From a virus, in the UHGV virus genome UHGV-0139776: DNA of 64,000 bases. One strand, given 5' to 3'. Every line of letters begins with the position of its first letter. The stretch's first letter is position 1. The notes beneath the pieces were generated by a model. It was not told where the DNA came from. It did no database searches and saw only the letters and a list, made by a program, of their open reading frames with translations. Made by a program: the position numbers and the translations under genes. This document shows positions 1 to 5,193 of this stretch, piece by piece.

Positions 1-41
1 GAGGGCCACGGAACGGGCACACCAACGGGCAGCGCAGAGCC

Positions 42-67
42 TTCCCCCAAACCAACGTTTCTATGCC
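42..67. other. second crossover-like site (TTCCCCCAAACC-AA-CGTTTCTATGCC) overlapping the fibre stop codon; start of a further cassette
   Basis: Positions 1-55 are identical to 473-527; the minus-strand frame through 59..1 is open and encodes NVGLGEGSALPVGVPVPWP, the same junction peptide. Confidence 0.45.
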
Positions 68-2043
68 GCTCTTACGATGTAATTAAATGCAATATTACGC
101 GGACGAGCTGATACATAAGCCCACCAGTTATATCTTTGGGCACCTTTACTGGATGCATCAAATATCCACTTTTTGCCATTTATGGCCCCCCATTGATTAG
201 AGGTTAAAGTGTCACCAAATCCGTATTGTGTTGAGCTGAGTGAACTGATATCCCCAGTATCATTATCATCAAAACCGGAGACGATAGTGCCTTCCTGAAA
301 TGAAAGTATCTCTCGTCCTGCATCAATACCTCGTCCGTCATCCCAGCCACGGATAAATTCGCCCCGTAAATCCGGTAATTTATTGGTCGGATAAGCCTTT
401 GCCAGCCTGGGGTACATTTCAGAAGAAAATGCTGCGCCGTTACATTTCAGCCAGCCCGTTGGTGGTGTTGCTGAGGGCCACGGAACGGGCACACCAACGG
501 GCAGCGCAGAGCCTTCCCCCAAACCAAGGTAATCAAGAACGCTCTGAATACTGGTCTTACCAAGAATGGCGCGTCCAACACTTGTCAATGCAGTTAACGC
601 GGCACGATCAACACCTGTGAAATAAGGGAGTTTATCTGCTGCTGTAGCTAGTGCCGCTAGAGCAGTGAGCGTAGCGTCTGCCGCTTGCTTTCCATTAGCC
701 AAATCATATGCAGCCTTGACAGCTTTCGGTGTGGCGGCCAGCACTTCAGACGTACTGTTAGTGGCACTACTGAGCTGAGTGATGCCTTTCGCTGTCAATG
801 AAGCTGTTGGCACACCAGTGATCTGATTCCAGGGATGTGTATGACTGGATGGTGCCTTTCCGGCTGCTAGATCGTATGCAGCTTTAACCGCTTTTGGAGT
901 TGCAGCTAATGTTTCAGAAGTGCTGTTGGTGTCGCTACTGAGCTGAACTATCCCTTTTTGTGTCGTGGTTGCATCCTGGGCTGTATACTTCCCGTTAGCC
1001 AAATCATATGCAGCCTTGACAGCTTTCGGTGTGGCGGCCAGCACTTCAGACGTACTGTTAGTGGCACTACTGAGCTGAGTGATGCCTTTCGCTGTCAATG
1101 AAGCTGTTGGCACACCAGTGATCTGATTCCAGGGATGTGTATGACTGGATGGTGCCTTTCCGGCTGCTAGATCGTATGCAGCTTTAACCGCTTTTGGAGT
1201 TGCAGCTAATGTTTCAGAAGTGCTGTTGGTGTCGCTACTGAGCTGAACTATCCCTTTTTGTGTCGTGGTTGCATCCTGGGCTGTATACTTCCCGTTAGCC
1301 AGGTCATATGCAGCCTTGACAGCTTTCGGTGTGGCGGCCAGCACTTCGGACGTACTGTTAGTGGCACTACTGAGCTGAACTAATCCCTTTTGCGTTGTGC
1401 TTGCATCCTGCGCCGTATACTTGCTTTTCGCCAGATCGTAGGCTTTTTTAACTGCCAGCGAACTCGCAGCAACATCACTTCTGGTACTGGTTACAGAGTC
1501 TGAAATATCAATGCCGATCGTGCGGTTGATACGCTCGGATGTATCAATCATCTCTTGAGTAATGGTAGATACGCCAGCAGGGATATTCACCGTACAAACC
1601 AGCAGTTCCCCATCACCTAACTGATATGAATCGGTATAGGTTCTGGCAACAAATTCAGCTGCATGAATATGTGACGCGGTATTCACCTGATAGGTATCTT
1701 CTCCAAGAAGGTATCTTCCCTTCAGCACAATTGCATATTTCTTGCCTGCGTTAAGTGCAAGAGAGATATCCTTACGATGCTGAATAGTTACCTGGTAGAA
1801 TTCACCAATATCCACTGACGCCGCGCCAGCGGTTTTATCTCCATCCACTGAGGTGATTAACAGGTTCATTCCACCGCCAGGCTTAGGCAAGAAACCAGCA
1901 TAAAATCCTGGGTCAACAATTCCCCTGAATTTTCGGTTTAGAGCGGCTGACAGATATGGTTCGTGGTATTGCACATCAGCCACCAGAGCCAACGACTCGG
2001 GTGATGGGTAAGTAACCGATGTAACAACTGTAACGTCATTCAT
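61..2043 (-). CDS. tail fibre protein (S-like) with P2 gpH / Mu S-type repeat motifs and a variable C-terminal receptor-binding cassette
   Basis: ORF track 61..2130; preferred start ATG at 2043 preceded by AAGGA. Motifs LTAKGITQLSSATNSTSEVLAATPKAVKAAYDLA (repeated) and DATLTALAALATAADKLPYFTG are typical of Mu/P1/P2 tail fibres. Stop TAG at 61-63. Confidence 0.8.
   Translation of the reverse strand: MNDVTVVTSVTYPSPESLALVADVQYHEPYLSAALNRKFRGIVDPGFYAGFLPKPGGGMNLLITSVDGDKTAGAASVDIGEFYQVTIQHRKDISLALNAGKKYAIVLKGRYLLGEDTYQVNTASHIHAAEFVARTYTDSYQLGDGELLVCTVNIPAGVSTITQEMIDTSERINRTIGIDISDSVTSTRSDVAASSLAVKKAYDLAKSKYTAQDASTTQKGLVQLSSATNSTSEVLAATPKAVKAAYDLANGKYTAQDATTTQKGIVQLSSDTNSTSETLAATPKAVKAAYDLAAGKAPSSHTHPWNQITGVPTASLTAKGITQLSSATNSTSEVLAATPKAVKAAYDLANGKYTAQDATTTQKGIVQLSSDTNSTSETLAATPKAVKAAYDLAAGKAPSSHTHPWNQITGVPTASLTAKGITQLSSATNSTSEVLAATPKAVKAAYDLANGKQAADATLTALAALATAADKLPYFTGVDRAALTALTSVGRAILGKTSIQSVLDYLGLGEGSALPVGVPVPWPSATPPTGWLKCNGAAFSSEMYPRLAKAYPTNKLPDLRGEFIRGWDDGRGIDAGREILSFQEGTIVSGFDDNDTGDISSLSSTQYGFGDTLTSNQWGAINGKKWIFDASSKGAQRYNWWAYVSARPRNIAFNYIVRAA
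514..539. other. Cin/Gin/Hin-type crossover-like site (TTCCCCCAAACC-AA-GGTAATCAAGAA) at the constant/variable junction of the fibre gene
   Basis: Resembles hix/gix/cix half-sites around a central AA; identity with the copy at 42-67 ends exactly after the central AA dinucleotide. Confidence 0.5.
695..1380. repeat. perfect 300-bp tandem duplication (695-994 = 995-1294) plus a partial third copy, inside the tail fibre gene
   Basis: Direct comparison of the sequence lines: 300 bp identical, in frame (100 aa), third copy about 95 percent identical over 86 bp. Confidence 0.9.
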
Positions 2044-2054
2044 CAAGCATATCC

Positions 2055-2489
2055 TTATGCTGTAGTCGAGTTTATGGCCATAACTGCGGTATATGTTTTG
2101 CCCACATACAGCGAGTCTTCTTGGACACAAATAATGGCGATTGGCTTATTCTCGTTATCCAGAACAACCAGAGTGTTGAATGGGTAGTTTTTCCCTTCCT
2201 GCAACTGACTTTGATCAAGGTCCATTCGGACAGTAATTATCCCGCCTGAGTAGGTTGGAACGAGGTTGATGGTGCAAAATTGACTGGTCAGTTCTGCCAG
2301 ATCGAAAGCCTTTGGCAGTTCTCCAATCTCATAAGTGCCATCTCCTTTCTTAGTAACCAGTGAACTGGTACCGAAAACGGCCTTGCTGATTAAAAATCGA
2401 GAGCCTTTGTTAATGGACGATTCAGCGCGCCGCTGATAGTAATAGTCCAACAACTGACTCTTATAGAGGTTTGTTGAGACGTCAGACAT
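2055..2489 (-). CDS. tail-fibre-associated structural protein (R-like position), 144 aa
   Basis: ORF immediately upstream of the fibre gene in the same operon; no recognisable catalytic motif. Confidence 0.4.
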   Translation of the reverse strand: MSDVSTNLYKSQLLDYYYQRRAESSINKGSRFLISKAVFGTSSLVTKKGDGTYEIGELPKAFDLAELTSQFCTINLVPTYSGGIITVRMDLDQSQLQEGKNYPFNTLVVLDNENKPIAIICVQEDSLYVGKTYTAVMAINSTTA

Positions 2490-2567
2490 GATTTTCCCTA
2501 ATCAATGTTGTGAAGCCTCATTGTAAGATAAGTAACTTGTCACCCCGCCCTGCGGACGGGGTGATTG

Positions 2568-3407
2568 TCACGCATCGCTATCCAACAGCAAATCATCTGC
2601 GCGGGTGCGATCAAACGTAGGCGTTGCTTTCACAATAGTGCCGCCCGGCGTTGCAGTGATCGGGGCGTTAATCGACGTAACTTCAGTAAGCGAAGTTGTA
2701 TCCGAAGTTTCAAACCAGCAGAATGCTTTTTCGGTATCAGAAATCTCATTCAAAGTGATCATGTCGGCCTGTTCATTTACAACAACCGACAAATAGAGCG
2801 TAAGCCCATCAAACACTATATGCAGTGGCAGTAGAGGCTTTACGAACTGATTAAACTTTCTGAGAATTTCTTCTGTAATTGCGGACTGATCTATCGTTCC
2901 AGTAATACCCATTGTCCGGGCCAGGTCGTTTATGGGAATACTGATCATTCCTCTGGAAGTCAGAAACATCTCACCGAATGTGCCGCCGGTGGTTTCCAGT
3001 GTGCTTTCTGGAATCAGGACCGTGCCATAGGGATGACGTTCAAAGTCCACCGGAGCATATATGGGATCCCATAAAACCGATATACCGTTAAATTCGCGAT
3101 AAATTGTCTGGTTTATAGGGCGTTCAGTACCCTTAAAATGGATCTCATCAAACCGCTGTTGTAACAACATCGGAACGGAAGATGAATTCGACGTTCTGAT
3201 AGTAAAAAACTGGCCAAGTTCATTTGTCCTGGTCTCCAGATCCTCCTTGCTCATGGAGAAAATAGACTTCCGGTTGGTAATTCGCTCCAACCATGGGTCA
3301 ACAAAGGTGTCCATCATTGACTGAACCAAATCAGCCAATGATTTATAGAGCAATGACTTTTGCTTAGCTGATGTAAGCCGGTTATTAAACCAGGAACGTT
3401 GCATCAC
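2568..3407 (-). CDS. baseplate/tail structural protein, 279 aa
   Basis: ORF in the baseplate operon, 4-bp overlap with the upstream gene. Confidence 0.4.
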   Translation of the reverse strand: MMQRSWFNNRLTSAKQKSLLYKSLADLVQSMMDTFVDPWLERITNRKSIFSMSKEDLETRTNELGQFFTIRTSNSSSVPMLLQQRFDEIHFKGTERPINQTIYREFNGISVLWDPIYAPVDFERHPYGTVLIPESTLETTGGTFGEMFLTSRGMISIPINDLARTMGITGTIDQSAITEEILRKFNQFVKPLLPLHIVFDGLTLYLSVVVNEQADMITLNEISDTEKAFCWFETSDTTSLTEVTSINAPITATPGGTIVKATPTFDRTRADDLLLDSDA

Positions 3408-4837
3408 TCCTCCTCATACGAAATATTGAAGGTGGAGTTTCCTGTATCCAGATAAACGAAATCGTAAAAGCCGTTGGACTCATTCCACTCGACAAACTCC
3501 AGATAAAAGTCGCGGAAATAGCCCAACGTTTCGATAAACGCCCAAACGTCTTTTTTCTTAATCAGGATGTACTTTCCGACGCGGTTCGGATCAAAGAAAG
3601 TTGAGTCGCGCCCAAATTTTGTTTCCAGTGCCGACTTCAGCTCATCGGTCACGTTCTCAATGGTCAGGCTTGCCGATATCCGTCCGGTGATGGTTATCTT
3701 AAATGGTAGTTTTCTGACCTCTTTATAAGAGAATTTCTTGTTCAGTTCATTCGGTACCTTCTTAAAGGCAGTCAGGATCATTTCTTCAAGCTCTGACTGG
3801 CTTTTATTTGGATGCCATCCTGAAATAAATATCTTATTGATATTCTGAACATTATAAGCACCATCTAATTTCTCTTGCTGGCCTTCGCCCCATGCCTTTA
3901 CCCAGGACAGCCCCGGGATGTTACGAACCAGAAAATACGTATAGTCCCCGCCCCATACAACCTGATCATCATAGGCAAGGTAATATTGTGCACGGTTACG
4001 TGTGATCTCCGTTGTTTCAGCATCGGTACCTGCGGTTATAGGTGTCGTTGTCTTAACTGAAATCAAATTAGCTAAATTAGCCGCAGAATCGACAGGCGTC
4101 AGGTTTTGGCCAGCAACCAGGGTTATATCGCCGTTGGTGCACCATACCTTAAGCGTAATTGTCGAGCCTTCTGGCGGTATTTGCCCAATTAGCCCATCGC
4201 CGAATCGAACACCCAACTGTTCGGATGGTTTATAAAACTCAACGTAGACCTGGCTTTTACTACCAGCTAACCGGAACATTGTGCTGGAAGACCACTGCGT
4301 GGTCTTACCATCGGTCGTCACGAATACTTCCAGCTTATAGCAGACAGCAGTGAGAGCCTTTGATAACACGACTTCCAGAAATTCTTTGGCTGCCGTAACG
4401 GTATATGTCACCTCCTGGATTTCCAACTGTGCCACTTCTACCGTACCGGTGCCGTCAACCAACCTGCATACATCCATAGTCATGTAAGGGTACTGGTCGT
4501 CAGATATTAAAGGCGTGTTTTTGGGGATTACCGCTGGAGCATCTTCACTTGTGGCTGTGATCTCAACCATCCCGGATGACGGTGTTGGCTTGGTACCAAC
4601 GTAACTATTCGTTTCTGCCGCTGCCAGGATAGAGGAACGCCGCGTCGCGGTCGATATAAAGCCTTCAGCCAGTGCCGCATCGGCATACTGAAAGCACCTG
4701 TAGACAATCTGGGTAATAAACAATGTCAGCATCGAGACAAATTGAGAGCCGACAAACTTCGACCAGAATGAATCTTTCTCGACAAGCTCTTCAAACTCTG
4801 CACGAATACTGTCTTTAGTCGGTGTTGTTTTACTCAT
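3404..4837 (-). CDS. putative baseplate wedge (J-like) protein, 477 aa
   Basis: Size and position between a W-like small protein and the fibre genes; overlapping start/stop with neighbours. Confidence 0.4.
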   Translation of the reverse strand: MSKTTPTKDSIRAEFEELVEKDSFWSKFVGSQFVSMLTLFITQIVYRCFQYADAALAEGFISTATRRSSILAAAETNSYVGTKPTPSSGMVEITATSEDAPAVIPKNTPLISDDQYPYMTMDVCRLVDGTGTVEVAQLEIQEVTYTVTAAKEFLEVVLSKALTAVCYKLEVFVTTDGKTTQWSSSTMFRLAGSKSQVYVEFYKPSEQLGVRFGDGLIGQIPPEGSTITLKVWCTNGDITLVAGQNLTPVDSAANLANLISVKTTTPITAGTDAETTEITRNRAQYYLAYDDQVVWGGDYTYFLVRNIPGLSWVKAWGEGQQEKLDGAYNVQNINKIFISGWHPNKSQSELEEMILTAFKKVPNELNKKFSYKEVRKLPFKITITGRISASLTIENVTDELKSALETKFGRDSTFFDPNRVGKYILIKKKDVWAFIETLGYFRDFYLEFVEWNESNGFYDFVYLDTGNSTFNISYEEE

Positions 4838-5193
4838 AGCACCACGTCCTGTGTGATAGTTATATCCCTGATACGAATGGATATTTTCAACTTATCAAAA
4901 GCATCTCCCTCGGCTACTGACAAGCCAGAAATCGGTATGTCAGGTAAATCTACCGTCAGTTTTTGCAACAGCATTGCCTCAACCGCAATTTGAACATGCG
5001 ACAAGTTGGTCGGTTCGTGTTTAAACTGCGGTAAAACATTGCCCCATGACGGATCTCCGTATACCTCACCCTGATAAGTGTTTAGCCACTCATATAAACG
5101 AGCGCCCCAGGCCTCCTCCTGGGACTCATACGTTTTTACGCCGGATAACTCCAGCGTCAGCAAAGGATCAATTTCGTTATTGTTGGCCATCAA
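4834..5193 (-). CDS. putative baseplate assembly protein (GPW/gp25-like size), 119 aa
   Basis: Small ORF translationally coupled between sit and the J-like gene. Confidence 0.35.
   Translation of the reverse strand: MMANNNEIDPLLTLELSGVKTYESQEEAWGARLYEWLNTYQGEVYGDPSWGNVLPQFKHEPTNLSHVQIAVEAMLLQKLTVDLPDIPISGLSVAEGDAFDKLKISIRIRDITITQDVVL

Follow-up and report, generated by a model that had tools for sequence, protein, structure and literature searches.

The window analysed in this work (i.e., the whole 64,000-nucleotide stretch of the virus genome UHGV-0139776) carries, close to its first position, a tail-fibre gene with a tandem repeat inside its coding sequence. The following features of the gene and its surroundings were distinguished:

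61-2043, minus strand: gene S of a P1-like phage-plasmid, coding for its tail-fibre protein, which has 660 aa in the assembled form (ORF, Pfam, P1/P7 identity).
528-2043, minus strand: constant part Sc, i.e., the N-terminal attachment region, the repeat array and a conserved stretch reaching the inversion crossover site (P1 record M81956.1).
61-527, minus strand: variable C-terminal part Sv, now fused to Sc, a putative collar-type receptor-binding tip (Pfam Collar, PDB sequence matches).
473-527, minus strand: junction between Sc and Sv, which encodes GLGEGSALPVGVPVPWPS and holds a crossover-site core TTCCCCCAAACCAA at 514-527 (sequence comparison).
1-55, minus strand: contig-terminal 55-mer, the start of a second C-terminal cassette in the same orientation, with a crossover-site core TTCCCCCAAACCAA at 42-55 (identical to 473-527).
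2055-2489, minus strand: gene R, which precedes S in the tail-fibre operon of P1 (PF26881, Phage_P1_tail_fiber_R).
1288-1455, minus strand: counterparts of the P1 'repeated element a1' (132 nt, best at 1288, 77%) and of a partial 'a0' (36 nt) (M81956.1, sliding comparison).

Based on the Pfam matches and on the nucleotide identity of S, R and the rest of the window to P1 and P7, the window was assigned to a P1-like (Punavirus) phage-plasmid and the repeat-bearing gene was identified as the tail-fibre gene S. The region 1355-2500 shows 96-97% nucleotide identity to the S and R genes of P1 and P7, and the remainder of the window is 97-98% identical to P1 across most of its length. Upstream of gene S lie R (PF26881) and gp16 (PF26903); gene S is located directly after R and its N-terminal region is homologous to P1 S, both as expected of a P1-type gene S. 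The translation of P1 Sc is near-identical to the gene S product over approximately the first 240 aa and again near ...DATLTALA..LPYFTG.... The protein matches the Pfam family PF03406 (Phage_fiber_2) with 355.5 bits (cut-off 22, E 7.6e-109) in six stretches, and it holds a Collar domain at aa 517-564. In the PDB sequence search, the tip matched 9cuy, a short tail fibre (E 7e-17), and 2xgf, the tip of T4 gp37 (E 4.6e-14). An initial sequence-only reading had placed the repeat in a tail-fibre shaft, and the Pfam matches, the P1/P7 identity and the record M81956.1 agree with this, locating the array in the constant part Sc of a P1-type gene S. Two crossover-like cores (42-55 and 514-527) and the conserved Sc/Sv junction lie within the window, while the recombinase gene and other cassettes would be situated past the contig end; related plasmids hold 3-5 crossover sites, several C-terminal cassettes and a recombinase gene.

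Within Sc, positions 695-994 and 995-1294 are identical over 300 nt (100% identity in sequence comparison). The longest exact match at an offset of 300 is 307 nt (695-1001 = 995-1301), and Tandem Repeats Finder reported a period of 300 over 688-1378, with 2.3 copies, 98% matches and no indels. Chance can be excluded as the origin of this arrangement, because a 30-mer derived from the unit (823-852) recurs at 1123-1152, i.e., two occurrences were found versus none expected in shuffles. The unit length corresponds to 100 codons, both copies lie in frame within the minus-strand ORF 61-2043, and this ORF is unbroken across all copies. The elements of the array are as follows:

695-994, minus strand: copy 1 of the 300-nt unit in the register of the sequence-only reading, aa 350-449, identical to 995-1294.
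995-1294, minus strand: copy 2 of the 300-nt unit, aa 250-349, with the exact run reaching 1301.
688-778, minus strand: A2, an A-type element, core of the 44-aa Phage_fiber_2 repeat, adjoining the 3' flank of the array (three-A-copy alignment, motif mapping).
779-987 and, as a second copy, 1079-1287, minus strand: B element, i.e., the 56-aa Phage_fiber_2 repeat with the linker APSSHTHPWNQITGVPT (motif mapping, 30-mer recurrence).
988-1078, minus strand: middle A element (A-copy alignment; 55-mers from 948-994 cross the B-to-A junction).
1288-1378 (1295-1378 in the 84-nt register), minus strand: A1, the A-type element that forms the partial third copy (A-copy alignment).

On the plus strand, the order is thus A2 (688-778), B (779-987), A (988-1078), B (1079-1287) and A1 (1288-1378), and the linker of B holds an HxH motif. 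The identical in-frame duplication described from the sequence alone is therefore present, with an exact run slightly longer than the unit itself and an ORF reading through it. The partial third copy had been put at about 95% identity; it exists, and its values were corrected to 84 nt (1295-1378) with three mismatches (1302, 1303 and 1348), i.e., 96.4% identity. It measures 91 nt when the register is set at 1288-1378, and past 1378 the identity in the offset-300 comparison drops to background. The proposed subdivision of each unit into two 50-aa sub-repeats did not hold, as an offset of 150 within the unit gives only 33% identity; each 100-aa unit is instead composed of a 56-aa and a 44-aa Phage_fiber_2 repeat, at nucleotide offsets of 168 and 132.

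The perfect identity of the two copies has to be considered together with the way in which the sequence was assembled. An exact-sequence look-up of the 660-aa protein gave one record (ENA ERZ1311524, NODE_54_length_95183_cov_6.591971), a contig with a SPAdes-style name and a coverage of 6.6, in which gene S lies 60 nt from the contig end. Its locus is identical to window positions 1-5043, and position 1 of the contig is position 1 of the window. The terminal 55-mer (1-55) equals 473-527 for exactly 55 nt, with divergence from position 56. The default final k of metaSPAdes is 55, and this overlap points to a k=55 graph and a contig starting at a branching node. Apart from the terminal 55-mer (1/473), the 64 kb reuse only the 55-mers starting at 695-947 and 995-1247. 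The exact repeat of 307 nt exceeds k=55, and no other internal sequence is used twice by the contig; since the two copies derive from shared graph nodes, they are identical by construction, and small differences between the real copies would have been merged at a coverage of 6.6. As judged from how the contig is named, from its 55-nt terminal overlap and from its k-mer pattern, the two perfect copies most likely reflect a k=55 de Bruijn graph assembler circling a 300-nt loop once beyond the minimum. SPAdes sometimes places short repeats correctly using read pairs.

It should be stressed that the loop does not remove the repeat. Each 55-mer that starts at 948-994 is found just once in the window, and these 55-mers link the end of B to an A element continuing into B; the reads consequently included a B-A-B junction, which makes at least two units real. 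The number two is a lower bound for the unit number in the window. The caveat that the duplication might be an assembly artefact was accordingly justified with respect to the number and identity of copies, which are unreliable in a SPAdes-style loop, but not with respect to the existence of at least two copies, which the unique junction 55-mers imply. The middle A element looks like a crossover hybrid (its first 7 nt resemble A1 and the rest A2); this pattern was dropped as evidence, because in a contig built from a graph loop the middle copy is not an independent observation.

To place the array among natural variants, 23 Escherichia coli records with the unit were fetched (17 evenly spaced in the match ranking, the two best overall, and four picked as two-copy). 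Motif counts in these records gave from one to five units per gene, always in frame and with 300-nt spacing:

1 unit: L024, L028 and L033.
2 units: L029, L035 and L041-L044.
3 units: L036 and L030 (L030 plus one 301-nt variant unit).
4 units: L022, L031, L032, L034, L037 and L039.
5 units: L023, L025, L026, L027 and L040.

Moreover, the 60 best complete-genome matches with the 3' flank of the window were sorted with a query across the array plus both flanks, which revealed nine one-unit and seven two-unit arrays, 42 arrays with three or more units and two ambiguous cases. Copy numbers were taken from spans and fetched loci, as the coverage of a B-A-B junction query was misleading (permuted pieces were joined in one-copy records). 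Arrays of one, two, three, four or five units were found in plasmids with 0 differences across 1150 nt of flank, and in most relatives the gene is annotated as an intact tail-fibre CDS of matching length. The array is thus a copy-number polymorphism of P1-like plasmids, with one to five units, and the supposition that copy number can change was borne out, even for identical flanks. Within the literature on P1-like phage-plasmids and PF03406, no description of this polymorphism of P1-like S genes was found. In IMG/VR, 17 of the 19 unit-bearing contigs hold a single B element, and 12 of the 19 end within approximately 850 nt of the motif; as these 12 are probably broken or collapsed near the motif, the IMG/VR contigs were left out of the copy-number distribution. 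Since most relatives with at least two units have three to five, the true unit number in the window may well be above two, as far as it can be read from the relatives.

The array was also found outside the P1-type gene S. An A-B array of at least 96% identity is present in a chromosomal lambdoid side-tail-fibre gene located after gpJ and lom (L038), and another one in a plasmid-borne gene whose N-terminal part is unrelated (L039), which suggests that the module moves between fibre genes.

Comparison of the units themselves showed a pattern of concerted evolution, i.e., they are more alike inside an array than across arrays: the mean number of differences per 300 positions was 2.4 within and 5.6 between arrays, a contrast reached by 0 of 2000 relabellings and partly confounded by the shared ancestry of the plasmids (23 records, four of them chosen for two copies). 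Runs of identical units were frequent, and ones private to one plasmid were found in L023 (four units), L040 (five), L030 (three) and L041 (two). Amongst the two-unit arrays, L041 has two identical units (a 353-nt exact match), and in the remaining ones the units differ at 2, 4 or 8 positions. All eight combinations of the marker sites at unit positions 8-9, 54 and 60 are present among the units, as expected from recombination or conversion among them. The 71 units comprise 37 DNA variants and nine protein variants, with 29 synonymous versus eight non-synonymous changes, and 51 of the 71 encode exactly the 100 aa of the window. The identity of the two copies had been ascribed to a very recent duplication or to ongoing homogenisation. 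The family-wide pattern supports homogenisation and recombination across units, but the perfect identity in the window is not evidence of a very recent duplication, because a loop traversed twice yields identical copies whatever the true sequences and their number.

Taken together, these data argue strongly for a tandem array of 100-aa shaft modules in a P1-like gene S, polymorphic in the family, whose two identical copies in the window are most likely the product of an assembler loop over at least two real units. We hold this explanation with considerable confidence. The 91-nt A elements on both sides of every B element provide homology for unequal homologous recombination or replication slippage, events by which units of 300 nt are gained or lost as a whole without a shift of the reading frame. 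Gene conversion among units maintains near-identical copies, and purifying selection conserves the protein sequence of the unit. Every added unit would be expected to lengthen the trimeric fibre, by roughly 5-7 nm per unit when scaled from T4 fibres, and a longer shaft would alter the reach of the interchangeable receptor-binding tips; we infer in this way that copy number alters fibre length. The AlphaFold2 monomer model of aa 182-461 was unusable (mean pLDDT 37, pTM 0.22) and showed only a recurrent helix over PKAVKAAYDLA. In the PDB sequence search, the repeat region matched only a short stretch of the Mu fibre protein S (aa 88-152 of 5yvq, 9ki1 and 8ju3), of which the N-terminus alone was modelled in the Mu cryo-EM work (PMC11915804), and no structural rule of length per unit was derivable from these matches.

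The alternative that fares best takes the assembled state literally, with exactly two 100% identical units produced by a very recent unequal crossover or gene conversion. Such a state could be correct, since two-unit arrays occur in six complete plasmids (L029, L035 and L041-L044), one of which (L041) holds identical units; in addition, L024 and L028, with 1-2 differences from the unit of the window, are possible one-copy parents, and the unique junction 55-mers require at least one B-A-B junction in the reads. Nevertheless, a k=55 short-read graph cannot tell two identical units from three to five and makes the copies identical by construction, the coverage was only 6.6, and approximately 85% of the same-flank relatives with at least two units have three or more. 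We therefore see this alternative as a realistic though not a probable one.

A further proposal concerns the rate of change rather than the sequence as assembled. The array might be a fast, reversible contingency locus, in which the unit number switches in lysogens, perhaps aided by phage recombination functions, and tunes the reach of the fibre to the thickness of the O-antigen or capsule, complementing the inversion of the tip. Variation of copy number between plasmids with identical flanks, the independent expansion of private unit variants (L023 and L040) and the mixtures of copy numbers in isolates of EfV12-phi1 (PMC6365445) are consistent with such switching. P1 infection is also affected by the O-antigen (bioRxiv 10.1101/2022.07.24.501295), so that a role for fibre reach would be plausible. 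The 1150-nt flank is, however, so conserved that identical flanks do not imply a high rate, and 300-nt units would use ordinary homologous recombination, not the simple-sequence slippage of classical contingency loci. We consider fast switching doubtful. If the unit number does switch fast, shaft length would be a second layer of host-range variation (through reach across O-antigen or capsule). Similarly speculative, and in our opinion improbable, is the broader idea that the array is a length-tuning device, forming such a second layer atop the Cin/Min tip swapping, with the module being traded between P1-like S and lambdoid side-tail-fibre genes.

Finally, a wholly artefactual duplication, i.e., a single real unit (A-B-A) whose second copy came from misassembly or from the mixing of two strains, is very hard to sustain: the contig is indeed a low-coverage, short-read, SPAdes-style one from a possibly mixed sample, one-copy alleles exist, and a single B element predominates in the IMG/VR contigs, but the 55-mers of 948-994, which join the B end to an 'AA...A'-type A element running into B, differ from the flank-to-A2 and B-to-A1 paths and are absent from any single-unit molecule, a different 55-mer, AA with G at unit position 54, would be contributed by a second strain like L041 or L044, and many IMG/VR contigs break off a few hundred bases or less from the motif, so that their single B may reflect collapse.

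For the window, the explanation preferred here, i.e., a polymorphic array of shaft modules seen through an assembler loop, serves chiefly as a caution. Perfect identity, the most striking feature of the window, is the output that a short-read assembler gives for any array of at least two near-identical units, and no evolutionary event should be dated from it. In the family, the comparison shows that the P1-type tail-fibre shaft is polymorphic in length, with one to five conserved 100-aa modules. As P1-like phage-plasmids spread resistance genes and serve as transduction and delivery tools, such putative fibre-length alleles could matter in practice. The amplification of repeats in a fibre shaft is ordinary in kind and would be expected by specialists.

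The closest known system is the Sc part of P1 itself. Sandmeier, Iida and Arber (J Bacteriol 1992) reportedly described 'sequence amplifications' in Sc of P1 and p15B. The amplified elements of P1 Sc are already annotated in GenBank M81956.1, namely a0 (36 nt), a1 (132 nt) and b1 and b2 (222 nt each), followed by the cix crossover site (cixR) and Sv. The array of the window lies in the same gene and at the same position, the 132-nt 'a' element corresponds to the 44-aa Phage_fiber_2 repeat and has its counterpart at 1288-1419 (77%), and the partial a0 as well as an offset-132 periodicity are present in the window too. The two systems differ in what follows: in P1, a1 is succeeded by two 222-nt 'b' elements sharing 63% identity, whereas the window has, in place of b, units of (168+132) nt with near 100% identity, the number of which varies among natural plasmids. 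The 'b' elements are absent from the window, as the best identity to b1 anywhere in 300-1600 was 38%.

In a wider context, the array belongs with the PF03406 (Phage_fiber_2, 'Pf2') repeats of lambda Stf, StfR and E. coli prophage fibres, which the strong HMM match in six stretches of gene S reflects. In those proteins the repeats are usually diverged, while the window carries a double repeat amplified into near-identical units. Little is known of the structure and role of Pf2 repeats (PMC3368898).

A similar behaviour was described for the Enterococcus phage EfV12-phi1, in which in-frame duplications of a tail-fibre segment, varying in number, arose repeatedly in experimental coevolution (PMC6365445). 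Both cases share an in-frame duplication of a shaft segment upstream of the binding domain, a variable number of copies and copies without internal diversification (PMC6365445). In EfV12-phi1, the unit is 1.8 kb long, lacks a recognised domain and arose de novo under laboratory selection (PMC6365445), whereas the array described here has a 300-nt unit built of recognised repeats and is a standing natural polymorphism.

The last system to be compared, the Cin (P1) and Min (p15B) inversion systems, would act directly downstream in the same gene; crossover-site cores lie at 42-55 and 514-527. Site-specific inversion changes the receptor specificity of the fibre, whereas homologous recombination or slippage changes the array, with an expected effect on the length of the shaft only.

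The window's contig begins with a copy of the junction between the constant part (Sc) and the variable C-terminal part (Sv) of tail-fibre gene S.

Junction copies, crossover-site cores and linker motifs in the window:
1-58: Sc/Sv junction, contig-terminal copy, at the start
473-530: Sc/Sv junction, second copy, in the same orientation, with exact 55-nt identity to the first
42-55: crossover-site core TTCCCCCAAACCAA in the contig-terminal copy
514-527: the same core in the second copy (one core per copy)
823-852: SSHTHPW (HxH motif), aa about 398-404, in the linker that follows the 56-aa repeat
1123-1152: SSHTHPW (HxH motif), aa about 298-304, likewise in the linker that follows the 56-aa repeat

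A second C-terminal cassette begins at the contig-terminal junction copy (1-58), and the assembly evidently broke inside a Min-like multiple-inversion region. The relatives carry three to five crossover sites each, in both orientations, together with several cassette ORFs (~150 aa), tail-fibre assembly genes and a recombinase. Among the 19 IMG/VR viral contigs with the B motif of the shaft unit (L003-L021), 12 end within about 850 nt of this motif; the tandem array of shaft units and the inversion region together look like a common breakpoint in short-read assemblies, and the single-copy counts obtained from these contigs are untrustworthy.

The S genes of several relatives are annotated as frameshifted, incomplete or split, and the spacing in such relatives is irregular: units measure 299 or 301 nt, or a gap of 380 nt within the array separates units that can still be recognised. 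This concerns the E. coli records L032 (about 2892-3481), L030 (2501-2802), L031 and L037, as well as phage vB_EcoM-673R5 (L002; unit length 299 nt). These irregular genes may reflect long-read indel errors or be real pseudogenes.

The array of elements A and B was also found in two other fibre genes. One is a chromosomal side-tail-fibre gene of lambdoid type that lies downstream of gpJ and lom (L038, NZ_CM167659.1, locus 1904-4465); the other is carried by a plasmid and has an unrelated N-terminal part (L039, NZ_CP020051.1). Both arrays are at least 96% identical to that of the window, and their presence in these genes suggests that P1-like and lambdoid fibres have exchanged shaft modules horizontally.

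Each shaft unit contains an HxH motif. Motifs of this kind in T4 gp37 coordinate iron along the axis of the fibre, and those in the window may do the same.

The tip joined to Sc in the window (61-527) is a short collar-type domain of ~156 aa, and in this contig no tail-fibre assembly gene separates its stop codon from the cassette that comes next. In P1, by contrast, Sv is much longer and is followed by gene U.
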